Below, piece after piece: positions 34,002 through 44,543 of a DNA stretch of 64,000 bases. Position 1 is the stretch's first letter. Each line of letters starts with the position of its first letter. The position numbers and the translations under genes are program-made. This stretch comes from Lachnospiraceae bacterium (GTDB lineage Bacteria; Bacillota; Clostridia; Lachnospirales; Lachnospiraceae). The notes below the pieces were generated by a model. It was not told where the DNA came from and searched no databases. It saw nothing but the letters and a program-made list of their open reading frames with translations. The stretch is taken from assembly GCA_015057425.1 (NCBI GenBank), contig SVEL01000011.1, positions 5,518 through 69,517 of the forward strand, given 5' to 3'.

Positions 34002-35591
34002 TTATATAGAATTATTAATGTATCTGAAATAAATTTTGATTTCAGGTTGTGTATTCCTGGAATGATACGTTTTTCGTTTGCCAACGTGAATTGAATGAAT
34101 AAGAGAGGACATCACGTCAGATGTAATGGTTTCTATCGGACCGAGGGCTAAGGAAATCTCAGTAAGCTTTACGATGTTTTCGTAATTATTTTTAGCAGTG
34201 TTATATTCTTTCTCTAAGGCAGACAGATTCTTCCTGGCAGCAGTAATCTTTAAATCGTATGCATTTGTCAAAGTTTTAAAATGTTCTAAAGATATATTTC
34301 CTGTCGCATAATCCTTGTACGAGGAGACTAAAAGCTGGTCTAATTCTTCTATAAGTTCTTTGCAGGAAGAAATTTTCTTTGAAATAGAGTTTTGCTGCTG
34401 TGTCTGCTTTGAGATGGATTTTTGAATGTAACTTTCGATAAAACTCTGCTTATTATCAGAAACGGCAAGGAAAAGTTTGTTTATTTCCCGGAGCAAAGCT
34501 TCTTCTATCACGTGATTTCGCACATAATGAGAAGTACATACAGATGGAACCTTCTTGCTGTTGCTGCAAACATAGTGGCTGGTATCGGGATTGGAATTGT
34601 TACTTCGACCGTGATACATTCTTCCTTTACAATCATCACAATATACGTAGCCTGAAAAAATATCATTCTCTCCCAATCTGTTTGGTCGTCTTTTTAAGGA
34701 ACGTCGTTTTTTGACAAGTTCAAATTCGTCATCAGTGATTATTGGCGGGTGCATATTCGGAACGACAATGTGCGAGTCAGGCGGATTTTTGATAACCTTT
34801 TTACTCTTAAATGAAGGTCTGTAAGTTTTACCGCTTACAACACAACCTGTATATGTTTGATTTTCCAAAATGTTTACAATTGTAGATTTATCCCATATGT
34901 AAGGGTGCTCGGCACGTTTTTTGGAATAATATAAGCCGCTTTTTCTGTAATTATAGGCACCCGGAGAGAGGATTTGATGAGATTCCATATATCTGGAAAT
35001 TTGAGAAGGACCCATTCCCTCTATACATAGTTTAAATATAAGTCTGACATTTGGAGAGGTTTCCGGGTTGATGATATATTGCTTGCTTTCGGAATCCTTC
35101 ATATAACCATAAGGCACCGAGCCGGAAATGTGTTCGCCACGTAACGCCATGGAATGTTGGATAGCACGAATCTTTCGGCTTGTGTCCTTTGGATACCATT
35201 CATTAAATAAATCCCGCATCGGCAATAAATCATCAAGCCCTTTGTTGGTGTCAATGCCATCATTTACAGCGATGTATCTTATATTGTGGGCAATAAAATC
35301 ATCCATAAGAGAGCCGATTACAAGATAATTTCTTCCGAGTCGTGAATGATCTTTTACTATGATAGTGGAAATATCTCCATTTCGTACCTGGGACAACAGT
35401 CGGCTGAATGCCGGTCTTTCAAAATTGGTACCGGACCAACCATCGTCGATGTAGTATTCAATGTTAGTGAAATGGTGTTCGAAAGCATAGTTTCTTAAGA
35501 AAATTTTCTGGTTACTGATACTTCCGCTTTCTGTGTTTTGTTCATCGTCTTTACTTAATCTGCAGTAAAGTGCTGTAATCTTTTGTTTCAT
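34002..35591 (-). CDS. large serine recombinase (resolvase/invertase catalytic domain, recombinase domain, zinc ribbon, coiled coil)
   Basis: 529 aa. N-terminus ALYCRLSKDDE...SISNQ contains the catalytic Ser motif. VKDHSRLGRN motif. Cys cluster YCDDCKGRMY...YVCSN. Confidence 0.9.
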   Translation of the reverse strand: MKQKITALYCRLSKDDEQNTESGSISNQKIFLRNYAFEHHFTNIEYYIDDGWSGTNFERPAFSRLLSQVRNGDISTIIVKDHSRLGRNYLVIGSLMDDFIAHNIRYIAVNDGIDTNKGLDDLLPMRDLFNEWYPKDTSRKIRAIQHSMALRGEHISGSVPYGYMKDSESKQYIINPETSPNVRLIFKLCIEGMGPSQISRYMESHQILSPGAYNYRKSGLYYSKKRAEHPYIWDKSTIVNILENQTYTGCVVSGKTYRPSFKSKKVIKNPPDSHIVVPNMHPPIITDDEFELVKKRRSLKRRPNRLGENDIFSGYVYCDDCKGRMYHGRSNNSNPDTSHYVCSNSKKVPSVCTSHYVRNHVIEEALLREINKLFLAVSDNKQSFIESYIQKSISKQTQQQNSISKKISSCKELIEELDQLLVSSYKDYATGNISLEHFKTLTNAYDLKITAARKNLSALEKEYNTAKNNYENIVKLTEISLALGPIETITSDVMSSLIHSIHVGKRKTYHSRNTQPEIKIYFRYINNSI

Positions 35592-35642: not shown

Positions 35643-35643
35643 C

Positions 35644-35675
35644 TATGGCGGTATACCATTAGGGAACCCGCCATA
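35644..35675 (-). other. dyad-symmetric candidate recombinase binding/crossover site
   Basis: The minus strand reads TATGGCGG-gttccctAAtggtata-CCGCCATA: perfect 8 bp arms and a 16 nt spacer. The centre falls on the AA of the CCTAA core shared with the four cassette genes. Confidence 0.5.
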
Positions 35676-35805
35676 AGGGAGATAAAGAAACTAGGGATAA
35701 AAGAAGAGAAGTGATTCAGATAAATATATACCCAAAACGCTTCTCTAAAAGATGGAACTTCCTATATTAGAATTAATGATTATAAAATTGAATTAAATAG
35801 ATAGA

Positions 35806-36663
35806 TTATAGTTTGCAAGTACCACAATCTTTAGATTTCAGATCATTAAATTTCATTACAAATTCATCAACTGTTTTCGACTCTATCGCAAAGTCAAACC
35901 ACTTATCAAGAATATCCGAATTATTTTCATCTTTGATGGAACAAGTAACAATCTCAGGCACATCACCAAGTCGACAGAGTATACGTAATATATATTCAGT
36001 TTTGCCTTCATGTTTAGCTTTTTTTGATGTGCGATTAAGCAATTCTTCAAACTTCATATATCCCGCCTCCAATTCACGACTCTTTTTGAGTTTTGTTACC
36101 TCTTCGTGCAGCTTATGTATCAAAGGATTTTTGACGGTTGATACATATTCGTCACTTGTATTTTCGAAGTATTCAAAAAATTCCCGCAGCTCATCAGGTA
36201 AACTCTCAACATCTTTACCTTTAGTGTTAAAGAAAATCCTTTTAGCGCCATCACCAAGCTTCGCACCATCTTCTGAGCAGGATGCTTCATATGTATATCT
36301 GCAAAGTCCACGTCCAAACGGATCAAATGTACAGATAAATATGATAAAGCTATCTCCGAGTTTGTCATAACTGTCACCCGGTTTCAAAGAAGATATATCA
36401 ACTTCAGCCTGGTAATAACGACTTCGCTTTGGCAAATCATCTTCAGAGAAATTCTGCGCTTCAATATCATAATTAACATCAAATGAATCTGTTGCATGTA
36501 CATCAAGACGGATACATTTAACATCTGAGCTTATAAGTATCGGATGTTCTGACTTAACATTTAGATTATCCACGTGCTTTCCAAGCAACAATTCCAACAT
36601 AATTCTACAGTTATCGGGATTTTCAAATACAGCTGCAAAAAGAAAAGAACTGTTCAAATTCAA
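35806..36663 (-). CDS. Rpn-family recombination-promoting nuclease / PD-(D/E)XK putative transposase
   Basis: 285 aa. RLDVHATD...NYDIEAQN...RSRYY matches the D/ExQ/R-Y pattern of the PDDEXK_2 (YhgA/Rpn) family. The start codon is uncertain: TTG at 36663, or ATT 9 nt after GGAGG. Confidence 0.7.
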   Translation of the reverse strand: MNLNSSFLFAAVFENPDNCRIMLELLLGKHVDNLNVKSEHPILISSDVKCIRLDVHATDSFDVNYDIEAQNFSEDDLPKRSRYYQAEVDISSLKPGDSYDKLGDSFIIFICTFDPFGRGLCRYTYEASCSEDGAKLGDGAKRIFFNTKGKDVESLPDELREFFEYFENTSDEYVSTVKNPLIHKLHEEVTKLKKSRELEAGYMKFEELLNRTSKKAKHEGKTEYILRILCRLGDVPEIVTCSIKDENNSDILDKWFDFAIESKTVDEFVMKFNDLKSKDCGTCKL

Positions 36664-36728
36664 ATCTTTAAACTCTTTACTAATTATTAAACACCTCCTA
36701 CAAAATAGGAAGTTCCCTCTCTTAGAGA

Positions 36729-36756
36729 ATTATACCACTTATTGTATGTAAGTCAA
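36729..36756 (-). promoter_or_regulatory. promoter of the left Rpn gene
   Basis: The minus strand reads TTGACT, 16 nt spacer, TGgTATAAT. Confidence 0.55.
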
Positions 36757-36785
36757 TATATTTTGTATAAATAATTAGTGCCGAA

Positions 36786-36868
36786 TAAAAAACCGAGAGA
36801 CATTGTCTCTCGGTGGGAAAAGGAAAAACAAGCAAAAAAGAAGTCATACCCAAAAGTATGACTTCTTT
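36786..36868 (-). terminator. twin terminator hairpins downstream of cassette gene A
   Basis: On the minus strand: agaagtcatac...gtatgacttct plus a T run, then ccgagagacaatgtctctcgg plus a T run. Confidence 0.7.
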
Positions 36869-36900
36869 ATTAGTGAGAGTTAATTTATCAAGTAAGCTGA

Positions 36901-37827
36901 TTATTCAGCAACGGTTCTCTTTCTCATAACAACAACTACTGCCATAGCAGCTACTGCTAAGATAGCTACTGGAAGAACTGCTGTCATATCACCTGTTTCT
37001 GTTGCATCTTCTGTTTCTGTCTCTGTTGCAGTAGGAGCTGCATATAAAGCTGCTACATCTGCCGCACTTAATTCGCGTTCATAAATGCACACTTCGTCCA
37101 TTAAACCAGAGAAGTTAGCATTCCACCAGTCGCCACTTCCAATAAAACCAACATCTGTCCAAGATGCTGCATCATCACTAAACATGTTTAAATATGTTGA
37201 GCCATTGTCTGTAGAATAAGCAAACCAACCATCGTCAGTATAATTAGCTTCATCCCAGTATGTTGAAACTTCAACACCATCTACATAAACTGTTGCTTTG
37301 CCTGTTGCTGAAACAGTATATGTTAACATTGTCCACTTTGATGTATCCTGACCAACCTTACCTGTTCTCCAATGGTCACCTACTGCTGATTCCCAACTAA
37401 ATGCGCTTGACATAGCTGCACGTGATGCTGCGAATGCATCTGTTGTGTTATTTGAACAGAACTGGAAATACTGACAGCAACCGTCAAAGAACAATGCTGT
37501 TCCTGTTGCGTCATTCTTTACCCAATAACTAACTGTAAAAGCTGTTGTTGTAGGAAGCTTATCCAAGGCAATAGCTACTGCTGCGTTTGCAAGTGTACTT
37601 GTGCCAGCATTTGCTGAAAAGTCAAATGCTTTACCTTTGATACCACCGTCAACATAAGCCGCTGTTCCTTTGTTAAGTGTTGCATCTGAGTCAGCGGCAT
37701 CATTTGCCAAACTATCTTCGAAAGAGTATTTTGCTATTAACCCCGTTTCGATATCAGCCGCAAATGCAGGCGCTGCTAATGCAAGTGTCATTACTGTAGC
37801 TACTGCTACTGCAAAAAATTTCTTCAT
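36901..37827 (-). CDS. secreted LamG/concanavalin-like surface protein, cassette paralog A
   Basis: The start MKKFFAVAVATVMTLALAAPAFA follows GGAGG. LamG-type motif DEVCIYERELSAADVAALY. C-terminus ATETGDMTAVLPVAILAVAAMAVVVVMRKRTVAE. Confidence 0.85.
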   Translation of the reverse strand: MKKFFAVAVATVMTLALAAPAFAADIETGLIAKYSFEDSLANDAADSDATLNKGTAAYVDGGIKGKAFDFSANAGTSTLANAAVAIALDKLPTTTAFTVSYWVKNDATGTALFFDGCCQYFQFCSNNTTDAFAASRAAMSSAFSWESAVGDHWRTGKVGQDTSKWTMLTYTVSATGKATVYVDGVEVSTYWDEANYTDDGWFAYSTDNGSTYLNMFSDDAASWTDVGFIGSGDWWNANFSGLMDEVCIYERELSAADVAALYAAPTATETETEDATETGDMTAVLPVAILAVAAMAVVVVMRKRTVAE

Positions 37828-37887
37828 TTTTCTTTCTACCTCCAATATTAATGTGGTATTCCCCAAAGATAAAAATATATATTTAGG
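37779..37887 (-). repeat. conserved 5' module (CCTAA core, leader, RBS, signal-peptide codons), copy A
   Basis: Near-identical to 38817-38946, 39166-39295 and 41383-41512. Confidence 0.85.
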
Positions 37888-37922
37888 GAACCCGCCATAA
37901 GGGAGATGAAGAAAGAGAAATG

Positions 37923-37956
37923 AAAAAGAAGTCATACCAAAAAGTATGACTTCTTT
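37923..37956 (-). terminator. terminator hairpin downstream of cassette gene B
   Basis: The agaagtcatac / gtatgacttct stem plus a T run on the minus strand. Confidence 0.65.
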
Positions 37957-37989
37957 CATTAGTGAGAATTAATTTATTAAGTATGCTGA

Positions 37990-38886
37990 TTATTCAGCGA
38001 CTGTTCTCTTTCTCATAGCAACAACTACTGCCATAGCAGCTACTGCTAAGATAACTACAGGAAGAACTGCTGTCATATCACCTGTTTCTGTTGCTTCTTC
38101 TGTTTCTGTTTCCTGAATGAATTCGCCTGCTGCTGCTGATGCAACTCCAGCTGCATCTAATTCATCAAACCAAATTGCTACATCATCAAACAAAAGATGT
38201 GAGTCTCTATCTGTCCAGCAGTGATTGTGATATCCACCGATAGTAGCTATAGTATACAAATCTGAGAATGCATCACCAGTATCTGTACGATCTAAACTAT
38301 TAAGAACTTCGCCATCAAGATAAACAACTGACTTTGTAGCAGTTACAGTATAAACCAAATGATGCCACTCGTTGTCATCAAGATATCCGTCATAATTGTT
38401 TGTGTTATATGCGTTGTTATCAAAGAAACCGCCGTTATTAACATGCATTGTTCCTCTAACACCAAAAACTGTCCACTGCCAGTCAGCATCAGGATTCTGC
38501 GCTGTAAATATTGGTGCCCAGCCGTCGCCGATTTCTGTCCAATTAGTAACATCATTATTTGACGCAGGTGATTTTACCCACATACTAAGTGAAAACTCTT
38601 CTGCTGCTGCAAGATCTTCCAAAAACTTTTCAGGAAGTTTTAAATAATCTGTACGCTGTGCTGAAGCTGAACCAGTTACGTTGTCAAATACCTTTCCGCG
38701 TGCATCATCTGCAATTGCACCTGATCCAACAATTGTAAGTGCTGTATCTGTTTCTCCTGCAAGACCTGCATTGTTTAAATTTCCTTCGAAATCATAATAA
38801 TAATTAGGTGCATCCATTGCGAAAGCTGAAACTGACATAGCAAGTGTTGTCACTGTAGCTAAAGCTACTGCAAAAATTTTTTTCAT
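37990..38886 (-). CDS. secreted LamG-like surface protein, cassette paralog B
   Basis: Start MKKIFAVALATVTTLAMSVSAFA. Motif FDDVAIWFDELDAAGVA. Same ETGD-TM-RKRTVAE tail. Confidence 0.85.
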   Translation of the reverse strand: MKKIFAVALATVTTLAMSVSAFAMDAPNYYYDFEGNLNNAGLAGETDTALTIVGSGAIADDARGKVFDNVTGSASAQRTDYLKLPEKFLEDLAAAEEFSLSMWVKSPASNNDVTNWTEIGDGWAPIFTAQNPDADWQWTVFGVRGTMHVNNGGFFDNNAYNTNNYDGYLDDNEWHHLVYTVTATKSVVYLDGEVLNSLDRTDTGDAFSDLYTIATIGGYHNHCWTDRDSHLLFDDVAIWFDELDAAGVASAAAGEFIQETETEEATETGDMTAVLPVVILAVAAMAVVVAMRKRTVAE

Positions 38887-38946
38887 TTTTCTTTCTACCT
38901 CCAATATTAATGTGGTATTCCCCAAAGATAAAAATATATATTTAGG
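38817..38946 (-). repeat. conserved 5' module, copy B (left arm of the inverted repeat flanking the B-C intergenic segment)
   Basis: The first 83 nt from the core are identical to copy C in inverted orientation. A few mismatches follow, out to ~130 nt. Confidence 0.85.
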
Positions 38947-39110
38947 GAACCTGCCATAAGGGAGATGAAGAAAGAAGAGAATGATATGTTGTGAAAACTT
39001 GATAAGTTTCGATAAAGAGTTGACACAGCGTTTAGTATAAATGTGGAGTTTTACTAAACAAAACGTGGTAAAATTCGGATTAAAAAAATAAAAAAAGAAT
39101 TAACATTATG

Positions 39111-39139
39111 TTGACAATAACTTAAATAAATGATATTAT
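39111..39139 (+). promoter_or_regulatory. near-consensus sigma-A promoter facing cassette gene C
   Basis: TTGACA (39111-39116), 17 nt spacer ending in TGa, TATTAT (39134-39139). Confidence 0.65.
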
Positions 39140-39165
39140 TTTTTTATCTTAAAAAAAGAGGTATG

Positions 39166-39295
39166 CCTAAATATATATTTTTATCTTTGGGGAATACCAC
39201 ATTAATATTGGAGGTAGAAAGAAAAATGAAAAAAATTTTTGCAGTAGCTATGGCTACAGTAATGACACTTGCTATGTCAGTTTCAGCTTTCGCTG
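39166..39295 (+). repeat. conserved 5' module, copy C (right arm of the inverted repeat)
   Basis: Homology to the other copies begins exactly at CCTAA (39166-39170). The upstream sequence is unique and carries the promoter. Confidence 0.85.
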
Positions 39296-40137
39296 CAACA
39301 CCAGTTTACTTCAATGATTTTGAAGATGGCGCAGGCGATGCAACAATCGTAGGTAGTGGTGCAATTGAAGATGATGCCAATGAAAAATATGGAAAGGTTT
39401 TCCATAACGCAGTAGGCGATGCAACAAATGTTAGAACAAATTACTTGCTTTTACCGGAAGATGTATTATCACATAGCGTAGATTCAAAAGAATTAACTAT
39501 TCAGTTTTGGGTCAACTTAGGTGCAACAGGTACAAATGATATGTATTCTCCGTTATTTGGTGCTTATGCTGCAGAACCACCTGCAACAGGAAATTCATGG
39601 CCGATGTTGGTTCTTCAGTCAAGATTACTTGCTCAGGTTAACTGTGCCGGATGGAGTGATCTTACAGCAGATCAGAATCTTGAAGGCGGAAATACAGAAG
39701 ATGTTACATGGTTAGATGACAAAGAATGGCACTTATACACAGTTACATTTGATGAAGAAATCGTAACAATTTATGTTGATGGTGTTGTTAAGCAGAAATG
39801 GGATGCTTCAACAGATTATGGCACAAACACTGACACAACAGTAGCTGGTTTGTATTCAAACGGTGCAGACCTTAAGTATATCTGCCTTGGTGGTAACCAG
39901 GCTTGGAACTGGGGCGATCCAGATGCTGACTATTTATTTGATGATGTTGCAATCTACAACGTAGCTTTATCAGCAGATGATATTGCTGATGTTATGGAAG
40001 CAAAGACAGCAGAAGCTTCAGACACAGAAGATGCAACAGAAACAGGTGATATGACAGCAGTTCTTCCAGTAACTATCTTAGCAGTAGCTGCTATGGCAGT
40101 AGTTGTTGTTATGAGAAAGAGAACAGTTGCTGAATAA
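39226..40137 (+). CDS. secreted LamG-like surface protein, cassette paralog C
   Basis: Start MKKIFAVAMATVMTLAMSVSAFA. Motif FDDVAIYNVALSADDIADV. Same ETGD-TM-RKRTVAE tail. Confidence 0.85.
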   Translation: MKKIFAVAMATVMTLAMSVSAFAATPVYFNDFEDGAGDATIVGSGAIEDDANEKYGKVFHNAVGDATNVRTNYLLLPEDVLSHSVDSKELTIQFWVNLGATGTNDMYSPLFGAYAAEPPATGNSWPMLVLQSRLLAQVNCAGWSDLTADQNLEGGNTEDVTWLDDKEWHLYTVTFDEEIVTIYVDGVVKQKWDASTDYGTNTDTTVAGLYSNGADLKYICLGGNQAWNWGDPDADYLFDDVAIYNVALSADDIADVMEAKTAEASDTEDATETGDMTAVLPVTILAVAAMAVVVVMRKRTVAE

Positions 40138-40169
40138 TCAGCTTACTTAATAAATTAACTCTCACTAAT

Positions 40170-40251
40170 AAAGAAGTCATACTTTTGGGTATGACTTCTT
40201 TTTTGCTTGTTTTTCCTTTTCCCGCCGAGAGACAATGTCTCTCGGTTTTTT
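40170..40251 (+). terminator. twin terminator hairpins downstream of cassette gene C
   Basis: The same two hairpins as at 36786-36868, in mirror orientation. Confidence 0.7.
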
Positions 40252-40278
40252 ATACTCATTGTTTTTATGCAAAATGTA

Positions 40279-40306
40279 TTGACATATAAACAATATGTGG
40301 TATAAT
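40279..40306 (+). promoter_or_regulatory. promoter of the right Rpn gene
   Basis: TTGACA (40279-40284), 16 nt spacer, TGgTATAAT (-10 at 40301-40306). Confidence 0.6.
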
Positions 40307-40341
40307 GAATGAAAGGAAACTTCCTGTTTTGTAGGAGGTGT

Positions 40342-41238
40342 TTGTTAATTAATAAGGATTTTAAAGATTTAAATTTAAACAGTTCGTTTCTTTTTGCGGC
40401 AGTATTTGAAAATCCAGACAATTGCAGAATTATGCTGGAACTGTTACTTGGGAAACACATCGACAATCTAAGTGTTAAATCTGAGCATCCGCTACTTATA
40501 AGTACAGATGTCAAATGTATTCGGCTCGATGTACATGCCACAGATTCCTACGATGTTAATTATGATATCGAAGCACAGAATTTCTATGAGGATGACCTGG
40601 CAAAGAGAAGCCGTTATTATCAAGCAGAATTAGATGTGGCATCTTTAAAACCTGGTGACAGCTATGATAAACTTGGTGATTCTTTTATCATATTTATCTG
40701 TACATTTGATCCGTTCGGTCGAGGGCTTTGCAGATATACATATGAAGCCTCTTGTTCAGAGGATGGCGAAAAGCTTGGCGATGGCGCAAAAAGGATTTTC
40801 TTTAATACCAAAGGAAAAGATGTGGAGAGTTTATCTGCTGAACTGAGGGAGTTTTTTGGATATTTCGAAAACACAAATGACGCGTATGTATCAACTGTCA
40901 ACAATCCTTTGATACACAAGTTACATAAAGAAGTTACCAAACTTAAAAAGAGTCGTGAATTGGAGGCCGGATATATGAAGTTTGAAGAGTTGCTCAATCG
41001 AACATCGGAAAAAGCTAAGCGTGAAGGCAAAATTGAAGGTAAGATCGAAGATATATTACGTATACTCTGTCGCCTTGGTGATATCCCTGAAGATGTCACC
41101 TGTTCTATCAAGCACGAAAACAATTCAGAGATTCTCGATAAGTGGTTTGACATTGCAATAGAATCAAAAAACGTTGATGAATTTATAAAAAAGTTTAAAA
41201 GTCTGAACTCTAAGGATTATGGTGCTTACAAACTATAA
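40342..41238 (+). CDS. Rpn-family recombination-promoting nuclease / PD-(D/E)XK putative transposase (second copy)
   Basis: Roughly 85-90 percent identical by eye to the 35806-36663 product, with one 4 aa indel. The ORF-track ATG at 40309 lies 2 nt after the -10 and so upstream of the likely TSS. The real start is probably TTG 40342 or ATT 40348. Confidence 0.7.
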   Translation: MLINKDFKDLNLNSSFLFAAVFENPDNCRIMLELLLGKHIDNLSVKSEHPLLISTDVKCIRLDVHATDSYDVNYDIEAQNFYEDDLAKRSRYYQAELDVASLKPGDSYDKLGDSFIIFICTFDPFGRGLCRYTYEASCSEDGEKLGDGAKRIFFNTKGKDVESLSAELREFFGYFENTNDAYVSTVNNPLIHKLHKEVTKLKKSRELEAGYMKFEELLNRTSEKAKREGKIEGKIEDILRILCRLGDIPEDVTCSIKHENNSEILDKWFDIAIESKNVDEFIKKFKSLNSKDYGAYKL

Positions 41239-41382
41239 TCTGTCTATTTGATTAAAATTTATTATCATTAAAGATTTACACAGGAAGTTCCATCTTTTTA
41301 GAGAAGTGTTTTGGGTATATATTTATCTAAATCACTTCTCTTATTTTATCCCTATTTTCTTCATATCCCTTATGGCAGGTTC

Positions 41383-41512
41383 TCTAAATATATATTTTTA
41401 TCTTTGGGGAATACCGCATTAATATTGGAGGTAGAAAGAAAAATGAAGAAAATTTTTGCAGTAGCAGTAGCTACAGTAATGACACTTGCTATGTCAGTTT
41501 CAGCTTTCGCTG
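41383..41512 (+). repeat. conserved 5' module, copy D
   Basis: Same leader, RBS and signal peptide. The core has one change (tctaa). Confidence 0.8.
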
Positions 41513-42237
41513 CAACAGAAGACAGGGTTGTTTATCAGAAAAATACTTATGCACTTGATGGTGATGCAACAACAGTAGAAAGTATGGATAATCCATTATT
41601 AAATCTTGATGCAAGCAAGATTGTAGTTGAATTCACAGTAACATCTCAGCAGCAGTTTGCAGCTTGGCCTATGGTAGCTTGTTTCTACAATTTAGATGAT
41701 AACGATGCTCCAAGAGGTGCAGCAGCAGTCAATTACTGGCCAAAGATTGAATTAAACAAATTTGATGATCCAAACCAGTGGTGTTCAGCAGGTTCAGGTG
41801 AGGCAAACAACGGTGGTACAATTTATGCGGATACACACTGTGATGGTCAGCCACATACATACAAATATGAAATCACAGACACAGCTGTTGTTATGACAGT
41901 TGATGGTACAGTCATCACTACAAAGTATGGTTATGGTGATGGGGCTTCAACAGATGCTGAATGTGCTGCTATGATTTTGGATTATATGAATACAGCTGCG
42001 AAATTTTCATTAGGAGCTGGAAGCAATATTTTTACTTGGGGTGAATTAACAGGTACACTTGAAAACTTCAAGATTACAGCTACAGTAGAAGCAACTGAAC
42101 CAACTCCAACAGAAGGAACGGAAACAGAAGATGCAACAGAAACAGGAGATATGACAGCAGTTCTTCCAGTAGCTATCTTAGCAGTAGCTGCTATGGCAGT
42201 AGTAGTTGTTATGAGAAAGAGAACAGTTGCTGAATAA
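41443..42237 (+). CDS. secreted surface protein, cassette paralog D (divergent beta-rich core)
   Basis: Start MKKIFAVAVATVMTLAMSVSAFA. Same ETGD-TM-RKRTVAE tail. The core lacks the LamG end motif. Confidence 0.8.
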   Translation: MKKIFAVAVATVMTLAMSVSAFAATEDRVVYQKNTYALDGDATTVESMDNPLLNLDASKIVVEFTVTSQQQFAAWPMVACFYNLDDNDAPRGAAAVNYWPKIELNKFDDPNQWCSAGSGEANNGGTIYADTHCDGQPHTYKYEITDTAVVMTVDGTVITTKYGYGDGASTDAECAAMILDYMNTAAKFSLGAGSNIFTWGELTGTLENFKITATVEATEPTPTEGTETEDATETGDMTAVLPVAILAVAAMAVVVVMRKRTVAE

Positions 42238-42449: not shown

Positions 42450-43295
42450 ATGAAGAAAAAGTTTTTTGCGGTAGTCGCTACGACTGTGATAACAGCTATG
42501 ATGTCGCTTACAGCATTTGCATCATCGTTTCAGCTTACAGAAAGTAGCACATACAAGTATGCCAATCCGTTAAAAGGTACTAATCCGGAAGAAGTAACTA
42601 TTGAATACACTATCACTGCAGCTGATAATGCAGCGGCAAATGGATGGGATGGTATATTATCATTCTATAACTCGAGTACATTGGGACGTGTTTCTATTCA
42701 AAGTCATCCGTATGTATGTTGGAATTCAGCTAATGCAGCAGCAGGATGGATTGACCATAAGGCATCAGCATTACAGATAAAGAAGGGCGTTGAACAGTCA
42801 TATAAGATTGTTATTAATAAGGATGGAATTCAGATGTTTTTAAATGGTGAAGCAATAACAAGTGCTGATACAGGTACATCGGCAGGCGATGCAACACCTA
42901 TAGCGGTTACATATCAGAATATTCTTGATGAAATTAACGGATGTGATTATTTCTTTGTAGGCGTAGGAAAAGCACAGTATTGCTATTGGAATACGGAGGT
43001 TTGTACGTTAACAGGCGTTAAAGTCAATGGTAAGGAATTTGACCCGGATAAGATTTTGCAGGAAGAGACAACGACGTTGGGAGTTCCTGAAAAGAACACT
43101 ATGGATTATGGTGTTCCTGTAGATGATAGCGGTTCAGTGAATATAGTGCCGGTTATTGTGGTATCGGTAGTTGCAGTTCTTGCAGTGGTTGTGGTTGTAG
43201 TTGTTCTTGTGATTGTTATATCTAAAGGAAAGAAAAAGAATAATGACGAAGAAATAAATAAAGAATCGCAGGAAGAGACGAATTCGGAAGAATAA
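42450..43295 (+). CDS. secreted, TM-anchored surface protein (lectin-like beta-rich ectodomain, acidic cytoplasmic tail)
   Basis: MKKKFFAVVATTVITAMMSLTAFA follows GGGAGGAG. C-terminal TM helix VPVIVVSVVAVLAVVVVVVVLVIVI, then KGKKK and an acidic tail. Confidence 0.75.
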   Translation: MKKKFFAVVATTVITAMMSLTAFASSFQLTESSTYKYANPLKGTNPEEVTIEYTITAADNAAANGWDGILSFYNSSTLGRVSIQSHPYVCWNSANAAAGWIDHKASALQIKKGVEQSYKIVINKDGIQMFLNGEAITSADTGTSAGDATPIAVTYQNILDEINGCDYFFVGVGKAQYCYWNTEVCTLTGVKVNGKEFDPDKILQEETTTLGVPEKNTMDYGVPVDDSGSVNIVPVIVVSVVAVLAVVVVVVVLVIVISKGKKKNNDEEINKESQEETNSEE

Positions 43296-43348
43296 ATTTA
43301 TACAAATTACTTTTGATTAATTTTATTTAATAATCGTTTTACTTTTAT

Positions 43349-43377
43349 TTGACTTTAATACATAAATGTGATATAAT
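43349..43377 (+). promoter_or_regulatory. promoter of the 43446 gene
   Basis: TTGACT, 17 nt spacer ending in TGa, TATAAT. Confidence 0.6.
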
Positions 43378-43445
43378 TTTGTCATATTTATGGGATAAAA
43401 GAAACATAAATTTATCAAATTCAATAATCTAAGGGAGGAAAGAAA

Positions 43446-44543
43446 ATGAAGAAAAGAATTTTTGCAGCAGTTATTACTGCTATGATGACAGTATCTATGG
43501 CTGTATCAGCATTTGCAGCAGATATTGAATCAGATCTTATTGGTAAGTTTACATTTGATGAAAACATCACAAATGCAGTTACCGGAGAAGACGCTAAGAT
43601 TATTGCTCAGAAGGGATTAGGCCCTGATGCAGCAGCAGTAGAGTACACATTCCCATTCGTAGATGGTGTAGATGGTAAGGCTCTTCATTTAGGTACAGAC
43701 ACAACAGGTGCAGCTAATACAAACGCACTTAACTTAAACCTTAAGGTTAAAGATGACCAGAACTATACATTCTCAGTATGGGTAAAGGCTTTCGAAGAAA
43801 GAGTTAACTTTGCTTGTCCTGTTGTTTGGATGGGTAAAGCAGTTCAGTCTCCAGAAAACTGGGTAGGTATCTGGCCAGGACTTGCTGGTGACTATGCAAA
43901 TGGTCCATGTTTCGGTGCTAACGGTATTATCGACAGCTCAGAAGTTGTTACAAGATTAGGTGCTGTACCTCTTACAGACGAAGGTCTTGGTATTAAGAAA
44001 CCTGTTAACGCTGAAGTTAAGACAACATTTGAATGGACAAATATTACTGCAGTAGTTAAAGATGGTATTGCTTGGTTATACTATGATGGAAAGTTAGTAG
44101 CTTCAACAGAAGGTAAGAACGGTACTAATGGTGATCAGCAGTTAACACCACATGTAAATGAAGATGATACAGTAAGCATTTACCTTGGTGCAAACTACTG
44201 GGATGCTCCGTTCGTAGGATATGTTGATGACTTATACATCTATGACAGAGCTTTAACAACAGAAGATGTAGTTGCATTAGTAACAGAAACAAACAAAGCC
44301 GGTGTTGCATTAGGCGACTATTCAGAATATGTTACAACAACAACAATCGACTACACAAAGAAACCAAGTATCAACAAGAATCCTGATTGGGTACAGGAAG
44401 AAGAAGATTCTATGTTAGTACCAATTATTATTGCAGCAGCAGTAGTAGTTGTATTAGTAGTAGTTATCGTATTGGTATTAGTAGTAAGCAAGTCAAAGAA
44501 GAAAGACGATGCTGAAGAAGATGCAGAAGATACAAACGCTTAA
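43446..44543 (+). CDS. secreted LamG-domain protein with C-terminal TM anchor and acidic tail
   Basis: 365 aa. Signal peptide ending SAFA, LamG motif VDDLYIYDRALTTEDVVAL, TM helix, then KSKKKDDAEEDAEDTNA. Confidence 0.85.
   Translation: MKKRIFAAVITAMMTVSMAVSAFAADIESDLIGKFTFDENITNAVTGEDAKIIAQKGLGPDAAAVEYTFPFVDGVDGKALHLGTDTTGAANTNALNLNLKVKDDQNYTFSVWVKAFEERVNFACPVVWMGKAVQSPENWVGIWPGLAGDYANGPCFGANGIIDSSEVVTRLGAVPLTDEGLGIKKPVNAEVKTTFEWTNITAVVKDGIAWLYYDGKLVASTEGKNGTNGDQQLTPHVNEDDTVSIYLGANYWDAPFVGYVDDLYIYDRALTTEDVVALVTETNKAGVALGDYSEYVTTTTIDYTKKPSINKNPDWVQEEEDSMLVPIIIAAAVVVVLVVVIVLVLVVSKSKKKDDAEEDAEDTNA

Follow-up and report, generated by a model that had tools for sequence, protein, structure and literature searches.

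The R64-type shufflons (Rci/sfx), the Bacteroides Mpi promoter inversions and the hsdS shufflons have several recombination sites in both orientations with a short common core, and in each system a single recombinase, whose gene lies at the edge of the locus, performs nested inversions that lead to a choice among surface-protein variants. A locus with the same arrangement of sites, on which one recombinase would run inversions of this kind, lies in a stretch of 64,000 nucleotides (nt) from Lachnospiraceae bacterium (assembly GCA_015057425.1, contig SVEL01000011.1, positions 5,518-69,517 of the forward strand). This whole stretch is called the window here, and its positions are used as coordinates. 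The locus consists of a gene for a large serine recombinase, four surface-protein cassettes (A, B, C and D) and two Rpn-family nuclease genes (rpn1 and rpn2), each of which lies in one arm of a 1.35 kb inverted repeat bounding a 5.7 kb segment. In our judgement it is probably a promoter-shuffling, shufflon-like inversion switch, with the arms as cargo-bearing cassette units and the Rpn genes as passengers. This judgement builds on the anatomy of the locus, on its sites, on core inversion in relatives and on the hallmarks of the Rpn genes, all of which could be demonstrated. The Rpn genes are most likely dispensable for inversion.

The locus also departs from the known switches. The R64 shufflon is driven by the tyrosine recombinase Rci and exchanges C-terminal coding segments, whereas the window encodes a large serine recombinase outside the Rci family, and the promoter would move relative to complete genes that have their own signal peptide and anchor. 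Small invertases such as Hin, Gin and Mpi are ∼190 amino acids (aa) long and consist of a catalytic and a helix-turn-helix part; the window enzyme has 529 aa, with the C-terminal domains of large serine recombinases. Unlike the sites of the shufflons named above, those of the window are hybrids built from four half-site types (S, R, P and G), and the segments between them carry unrelated cargo. The recombinase has the three-domain architecture and catalytic serine of phage integrases, TnpX, CcrAB and XisF. Unlike the large serine recombinases of mobile elements, it has no mobile-element genes around it and its chromosomal position is conserved across species. In contrast to integrases, which carry out a one-way attP x attB reaction, it would act, as we infer, as a reversible invertase on five sites.

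The two nuclease genes resemble those of E. coli RpnA-E and RpnP2 (PMC5350276; PMC10400941) in their PD-(D/E)XK core with D..ExQ and in an intragenic ribosome-binding site followed by ATG. As in E. coli, a four-residue repeat of glycine, charged and hydrophobic residues lies 8-20 residues after the methionine and differs in number between paralogues, and there are several copies per genome, each its own transcription unit. Unlike the E. coli genes, those of the window belong to PF12784/TIGR01784 rather than PF04754. We found no description of such a locus in the literature searched. A multiple-inversion switch with a large serine recombinase, a moving promoter and hybrid half-sites would be new, and an Rpn gene inside a surface-protein switch is likewise undescribed. 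With this locus, a large serine recombinase, usually a one-way integrase, would join the enzymes that run shufflon-like switches, and genes of the RpnL/RpnS defence type are placed within a surface-protein variation locus of a gut Lachnospiraceae bacterium.

Sites, promoter and recombinase

Five sites were found in the locus, three of them on the minus and two on the plus strand, together with a single promoter and four cassettes that lack one. The sites have a CCTAA core in common, and the AA of this core is likely the crossover dinucleotide. The recombinase-proximal site, of type S|R, occupies 35643-35690 on the minus strand (core TTAGG at 35659-35663, S half at 35659-35678) and holds the outer end of the left arm. 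It forms a dyad, TATGGCGG-N16-CCGCCATA, centered on the AA of CCTAA, and overlaps the extended -10 element TGATATAAT of the recombinase gene. Motif scans located the S|G sites of A (37868-37902) and B (38927-38961) on the minus strand. The S|G site of D (41368-41402, plus strand; core TCTAA at 41383-41387) coincides with the outer end of the right arm. The fifth site, of type P|G (39152-39185, plus strand), belongs to C and is the expressed position in the assembled state. A serine recombinase gene adjoining multiple sites in both orientations with a common core, the arrangement that characterizes a serine-recombinase inversion switch, is therefore present in the window.

Half-site S (CCTTATGGCGGGTTCCCTAA) has four copies in the window, one adjoining the recombinase gene and the others upstream of A, B and D. 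Half-site G (CCTAAATATATATTTTTATC) also has four copies, upstream of A, B, C and D. The number of copies expected in shuffled sequence is 0.00-0.06 for these motifs. No further S motif occurs anywhere in the 2.47 Mb genome, and the R half is present there as a single copy. The upstream half P occurs at C only, directly downstream of the strong inter-cassette promoter. Promoters were scored out of 12 with the extended TG noted, and only five reached at least 11/12: the inter-cassette promoter and those of rpn1, rpn2 and the downstream paralogues E and F. The sole strong cassette promoter (39111-39139, plus strand; TTGACA-17-TATTAT with TG) lies in a promoter segment (38947-39165, plus strand) between inverted repeats of 128 nt with 96% identity.

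The S|R, S|G and P|G site types recur in three other loci: L111, with a recombinase 72% identical to that of the window; L114, from a related species with a recombinase 50% identical; and L116. In a non-syntenic relative (L116 4705-9732, L120 7-4565), a consensus promoter precedes a P|G-type site; several genes for small secreted proteins are also present, and a DUF5688 gene takes the place of an Rpn gene.

The recombinase gene (34002-35591, minus strand) encodes 529 aa with Resolvase, Recombinase and Zn_ribbon_recom domains, and the product is a presumed invertase. Its catalytic serine, S13 in YCRLS, is invariant across the recombinase clade. Apart from the one relative at 72% identity, eighteen relatives were found at 45-52%, followed by generic recombinases at ≤39%. 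A family-wide genome search gave matches at ≤38% identity only, and none in the one other species of the genus. A metagenome contig scan with the clade alignment returned generic recombinases at 35-43% identity only, and no further switch loci. The Mpi model scored 35.6 bits on this protein against a cut-off of 272, and the best NCBIfam similarities, to CcrB and XisF, were far under their cut-offs. Clade members L112, L118, L119, L121 and L202 (48-52% identity) adjoin unrelated genes (Bac_transf and LytR_cpsA_psr, DUF2079, GGDEF/EAL), and one context among further members is a mobilisable element. Three of these five contigs (L118, L119 and L121) stop within 110-570 nt upstream of the recombinase gene, which is where assemblies should break if the region is invertible. 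L112 has an S|R-like site. The contigs of the further clade members have no bearing on the Rpn genes.

The window recombinase is presumably the enzyme that acts on the five CCTAA-core sites: S|R beside its own gene, S|G before the silent cassettes A, B and D, and P|G before C. Inversion between opposed sites would move the single promoter to a different LamG surface-protein gene, and could also put it before the recombinase gene. The 5.7 kb segment would then be one among several nested invertible segments. For annotation this means that what looks like a "segment bounded by transposase-bearing inverted repeats" can be one captured state of a multi-site inversion switch, not a transposon.

Core inversion in relatives

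Two assemblies of the related species, L114 and L115, have the recombinase gene at the chromosomal position that it takes in the window, with ABC-3, DegV and purL on one side and E/F-like genes on the other. Their recombinase proteins are the same and the flanks agree at 99.96-100% identity, but the 2.5 kb beside the recombinase gene is rearranged. The junctions consist of one P|G, one S|G and one S|R site. Two scripted inversions on L114, with crossovers within the CCTAA cores, give L115 bar 5 single-nucleotide differences, whereas 130 or 1780 mismatches remain when only a single one of them is made. The recombinase-proximal site takes part in one of the two, and the block reversed there comprises a cassette with 60% identity to C, an Rpn-like gene and S. 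This inversion is the counterpart of one, of 35664-41382, that had been proposed in an earlier note on this DNA.

Further junctions came from conspecific strains in other samples (X8 and X10), which were read from short contigs ∼3-4x deep. A 259 nt contig of X8, present at the full depth of that strain, joins the rpn1 3' flank and S to the leader of a D-type cassette on the opposite strand. The join spans the five common core letters. There is one mismatch to the rpn1 flank (the rpn2 flank is ∼11% different), and the leader and signal-peptide letters are D-type. A 307 nt contig of X10, also at full strain depth, leads from the 3' end of a cassette over a terminator, 16 nt, S, CCTAA and R into the recombinase gene, so that the site is S_A-type|R. 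The 16 nt resemble the sequence upstream of the S half-site of A, and 35691-36784 is skipped exactly, so rpn1 is absent there. Both junctions are impossible from the window arrangement and are expected two inversions away from it (segment order 0 2 3 -1 (4) 5). Runs X9 and X11-X13 showed ordinary A-site and B-site junctions only at the recombinase site. The X8 and X10 junctions support recombination at the cores in this species, short of proof of ongoing switching. Together with the two core inversions between L114 and L115, they support the nested site-specific inversions that, according to the earlier note, the architecture permits.

The inverted arms and their Rpn genes

The arms were delimited by repeat search, global alignment and BLAST. 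The left arm (35659-37019) and the right arm (40019-41387) are reverse complements with 84.8% identity over 1377 columns by BLAST, and the global alignment agrees. The repeat search split them into four collinear inverted pairs, 35652-35750/41296-41394 (89% identity), 35773-36020/41024-41271 (81%), 35995-36721/40311-41037 (84%) and 36785-37032/40006-40253 (96%). The outer ends are the cores TTAGG (35659-35663) and TCTAA (41383-41387), and the inner ends fall within the conserved 3' ends of cassettes A and C. Each arm extends from a cassette 3' end with twin terminators over an Rpn gene and its near-consensus promoter to a half-site that ends at the CCTAA core. The terminator scan placed the twin terminators of A at 36868-36837 and 36814-36792 (36792-36868, minus strand) and those of C at 40170-40201 and 40224-40246 (40170-40246, plus strand). 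The original description of the arms (35659-37020 and 40018-41387, 85-90% identical, with an Rpn gene, its own promoter, twin terminators and a cassette 3' module, with outer ends at CCTAA cores and inner ends inside A and C) agrees with these results, with the Rpn profiles and with the promoter scores. The mirror-symmetric gene map drawn with it matches the gene order and strands.

Inverted 1.35 kb arms around 3 kb recall Tn5 or Tn10, and Rpn proteins are annotated as putative transposases; the segment could then be a composite transposon, with two inverted transposase-bearing copies around cargo. However, the locus is syntenic in relatives (ABC-3/DegV/purL to E/F) with or without arms, and the arms are found nowhere else in the genome. 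The two copies are anciently diverged (82% identity in the coding sequence, synonymous divergence dS ∼1), their ends are recombinase cores that also occur at sites outside the arms, and rpn genes have been reported not to be autonomously mobile (PMC10400941). Synteny, uniqueness and age of the arms excluded a composite transposon or insertion-sequence pair, and we regard this origin as extremely improbable. Under the inversion-switch interpretation, the arms would be no functional pair of ends; each would be a composite of the common cassette 3' end and terminators, a 1.09 kb cargo module and an S half-site. The modules would be inverted relative to each other in the assembled state only, and would become direct repeats once the D site had recombined by inversion with that of A or B.

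Identity between the arms is uneven. It is 93% in the cassette 3' coding end, 96% in the terminators, 76% in the Rpn promoter and 5' untranslated region, 82% in the Rpn coding sequence (65% at third codon positions) and 86% from the Rpn stop codon to S. Because 93-96% in the 3' ends and terminators and 86% in the spacer far exceed the 65% at rpn third positions, the cassette 3' ends, terminators and rpn-to-S spacer are either homogenised or else constrained as DNA. In the spacer (35698-35805 and 41239-41352), AGAGAAGTG...CACTTCTCT forms a conserved stem-loop, behind which stands TATTTTAT.

The earlier note had also allowed for RecA-dependent inversion, and the arms might exist for homologous inversion of 37021-40017. 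Identical tracts of 74, 52 and 48 nt between the arms make such recombination possible in the cassette 3' end and terminator part. The sequence holding these tracts is, however, common to all four cassettes A-D; the arm-specific rpn part is 82% identical with a longest identical run of 32 nt, and a dS of ∼1 gives no sign of recent conversion. Such an inversion would also leave the promoter driving the same gene. We therefore find it very improbable indeed that RecA-dependent inversion is the biological point of the arms; what remains of that suggestion is the potential of the 48-74 nt tracts.

The rpn1 cargo module (35691-36784, minus strand), which comprises promoter, gene and 3' hairpin, is the block missing as a whole from the X10 recombinase site. 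Within it, rpn1 (35806-36690, minus strand; listed open reading frame 35806-36663) is predicted to encode an RpnL-type PD-(D/E)XK nuclease, and its promoter (36756-36729; TTGACT-16-TATAAT with TG) scores 11-12/12. The corresponding gene rpn2 (40342-41238, plus strand) is predicted to encode an RpnL-type nuclease of 298 aa from a TTG start, behind a 12/12 promoter (40279-40306; TTGACA-16-TATAAT with TG). Both pass the PF12784 cut-off of 27.4 bits (36.6 bits for rpn1, 37 bits for rpn2), and rpn2 passes that of TIGR01784 (96 vs. 52.1 bits). RLDV (residue 61) and IEAQ (residue 76) are present in both copies and give D63, E77 and Q79, which match D63, E82 and Q84 of RpnA by motif and spacing. In E. 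coli RpnA, these three residues are required for all phenotypes (PMC5350276), and the protein is a non-specific endonuclease and toxin (PMC5350276; PMC10400941).

In the RpnL/RpnS systems, the long nuclease has a small C-terminal protein as its antitoxin, the number of repeats determines which partners match, and the pair acts in phage defence; the hallmark of RpnS is a variable-copy four-residue repeat starting 8-20 residues after an internal methionine (PMC10400941). A putative internal start, GGAGG-N8-ATG, occurs at 40975 in rpn2 and at 36057 in rpn1, ∼85 codons before the stop. It would give the intragenic antitoxins RpnS1 (35806-36057, minus strand; 83 aa; in-frame ATG 8 nt after GGAGG) and RpnS2 (40975-41238, plus strand; 87 aa). 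The signal is kept in C33 and C28, where the genome has two further close copies, and in ∼30 relatives (41-55% identity). Sixteen residues after the internal methionine there is a four-residue repeat, EGKI twice in rpn2 (41023-41046) and EGKT once in rpn1, and the 12-nt repeat unit is the sole indel between the two genes. Relatives have 1-4 units of AEGR, AEGK or GKIE type. As far as sequence can tell, rpn1 and rpn2 carry both marks of RpnL/RpnS toxin-antitoxin defence genes, an internal start with a ribosome-binding site and a variable four-residue repeat. PADLOC-DB v2 had no match or model for either gene. Each cargo module may be regarded as an autonomous toxin-antitoxin nuclease gene of RpnL/RpnS type with its own promoter, and the cargo presumably acts in phage defence. 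With one and two repeats, respectively, rpn1 and rpn2 form a natural pair for testing whether specificity depends on repeat number, as reported for E. coli RpnS.

Two side observations concern rpn1. At 36664-36700 it has TTA where rpn2 has its TTG start, and the frame is open behind AGGAGG; the only start codons that could serve nearby are ATA or ATT, or else a TTG that lies nine codons downstream and lacks a ribosome-binding site. Because TTA replaces TTG and these candidates are poor, the long (toxin) form of rpn1 may be poorly translated, despite purifying selection on the gene. The rpn1-like gene of X10 is 98% identical over 36027-36392 and then fully divergent toward its C-terminal part, that of RpnS. 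Rpn genes have been reported to contain a hypervariable antitoxin domain, and this divergence fits it.

The two Rpn copies are 86% identical at the amino-acid level, with a proportion of synonymous differences (pS) of 0.565, dS ∼1.05, a nonsynonymous divergence (dN) of 0.07 and dN/dS of 0.067. Synonymous divergence between orthologues of the window and the L111 species is 0.41 for purL, 0.68 for ABC-3 and 0.80 for the recombinase gene. Since the divergence of rpn1 from rpn2 matches that between these orthologues, the arms are ancient paralogues under purifying selection at the protein level.

Whether Rpn genes are linked to this cassette family, a check proposed with the original description, has a divided answer. 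From the Rpn side, none of the 80 neighbourhoods of the closest Rpn relatives in other Lachnospiraceae (1.03 Mb) contained a cassette or recombinase relative. The genome has six further Rpn-superfamily copies and one fragment, none near a cassette homologue, and no inverted repeat of at least 30 nt was found within 5 kb of the six copies. From the switch side, in L111 an Rpn-like gene of 337 aa separates a cassette from the next S|G site, and L114/L115 have one between a cassette and S|R. The L111 and L114 genes score 31-35 bits on TIGR01784, under the cut-off, have no BLAST similarity to rpn1/rpn2 and are 36% identical to each other; they are members of a different subfamily. The P|G-type sites of L116 and L120 are without Rpn.

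As side observations, three copies of a second Rpn-like subfamily occur in the genome (C23:94112-94885, C5:17991-18761 and C22:37180-37956), ∼31% identical to the L114 gene and under the TIGR01784 cut-off. A fragment of rpn1/2 type (C22:36557-36868) directly adjoins the C22 copy. The C-terminus of the L111 Rpn-like protein gave a weak PADLOC match to a "putative invertase" model (E = 2.6e-4).

It had been suggested that the Rpn nucleases have a possible role in cassette shuffling. They might make breaks that feed RecA-independent recombination or gene conversion, or act as accessory or directionality factors. E. coli Rpn proteins do raise RecA-independent recombination (PMC5350276). The cassette modules are 91-97% alike next to saturated rpn synonymous sites, which implies some homogenising process, and in each of the three syntenic loci a gene of the Rpn superfamily sits between the terminator of a cassette and an S half-site. 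Against such a role stand the 0/80 neighbourhoods, the six genome copies that lie elsewhere and have no nearby inverted repeats, the switch loci L116 and L120 without Rpn, the X10 recombinase site that lacks rpn1, the different subfamily in L111 and L114, and the activity of RpnA as a non-specific endonuclease and toxin. The age of the paralogues and the toxin-antitoxin hallmarks point the same way. We consider a shuffling role quite unlikely, and the fallback offered with that suggestion, that the Rpn genes are hitch-hikers, is the better reading of the same evidence.

Several observations have to be set against the interpretation of the locus as an inversion switch with passenger Rpn genes. 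Large serine recombinases normally recombine attP x attB only, and an exchange of P|G x S|G breaks this rule. One arrangement is seen in every assembly and Logan contig of the window's own strain. Alternative orientations with crossovers at the sites were seen between L114 and L115 and in X8 and X10, but not within the window's strain, and the two orientations together were seen in no sample examined. Ongoing switching within populations is what we infer, not what was seen, and the X8 and X10 contigs, given their length and depth, could reflect fixed strain differences instead. The terminator scan called no terminator between rpn and S in either arm (the stem-loop was not called), and because of this the Rpn promoters may read through into the recombinase gene and cassette D. 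Finally, each of the three syntenic switch loci has a gene of the Rpn superfamily in the same slot, and at least two subfamilies are represented. This pattern exceeds a chance of ∼2% per locus by a rough, post hoc estimate on a small sample, and hints at a non-random link.

The single arrangement in the window's strain could also mean that the locus is a frozen relic, in which duplication and sites persist and the switch is inoperative in this species. Ten metagenome contigs (several samples, identical recombinase; one strain rather than independent observations) match the window at 100% identity and are collinear with it, so the arrangement is not a one-off misassembly. In the four best-covered Logan runs of this strain, the repeats interrupt the contigs, and S|R and P|G are the only junctions seen. 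These k=31 contigs are blind to most alternative states, which have all 31-mers in common with the window state. However, the recombinase is intact, all five sites are conserved, conspecific strains have other core junctions, and the related species has two states. On these grounds the relic was rejected, and we rate it as very unlikely.

The slot and the possible read-through can be combined in another way. Rpn modules may be cargo captured recurrently into a slot consisting of cassette terminator, module and S. The Rpn promoters are strong, apparently lack a terminator behind them and are directed across S, and the inversion state would set where they read. In the window, rpn1 would read toward the recombinase gene and rpn2 toward D; in X8, rpn1 would read toward the D-type cassette. 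If true, recombinase dosage and a second expressed cassette would both be coupled to a defence gene. As an alternative, the Rpn nuclease could fuel the gene conversion that keeps cassette ends 91-97% identical. We think this unlikely, and continue to favor the switch with Rpn genes as passengers.

Cassettes and neighbouring paralogues

Cassettes A-D have a common signal peptide and C-terminal membrane anchor around unrelated LamG-type cores, and their 5' and 3' modules are 91-97% alike. Cassette A (36901-37827, minus strand) encodes a LamG-type surface protein of 308 aa and has no promoter of its own. Cassette B (37990-38886, minus strand; 298 aa, LamG) also lacks its own promoter and has a single terminator at 37924-37957. 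Cassette C (39226-40137, plus strand; 303 aa, LamG) is the counterpart of the invertible cassette of L114, to which the 60% identity given above refers. Cassette D (41443-42237, plus strand; 264 aa) is again without its own promoter. Paralogues E and F (42450-44543, plus strand) each have their own promoter and no site, and lie outside the switch. For E, identity is 74-75% in L111 and L114; for F, it is 76% in L111 and 51% in L114 (L111 2390-4451; L114 4221-6281). The switchable cassettes mostly differ between species, unlike E and F, which are kept beside the switch in relatives.

The cassette tails (40018-40137 in C, and the 3' ends of A, B and D) read TE(D/E)ATETGDMTAVLPV, followed by a hydrophobic helix and RKRTVAE, and resemble a sorting signal. 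The L111 cassettes end in a matching tail, PTGDFTAVLPV...KKRTVAE.

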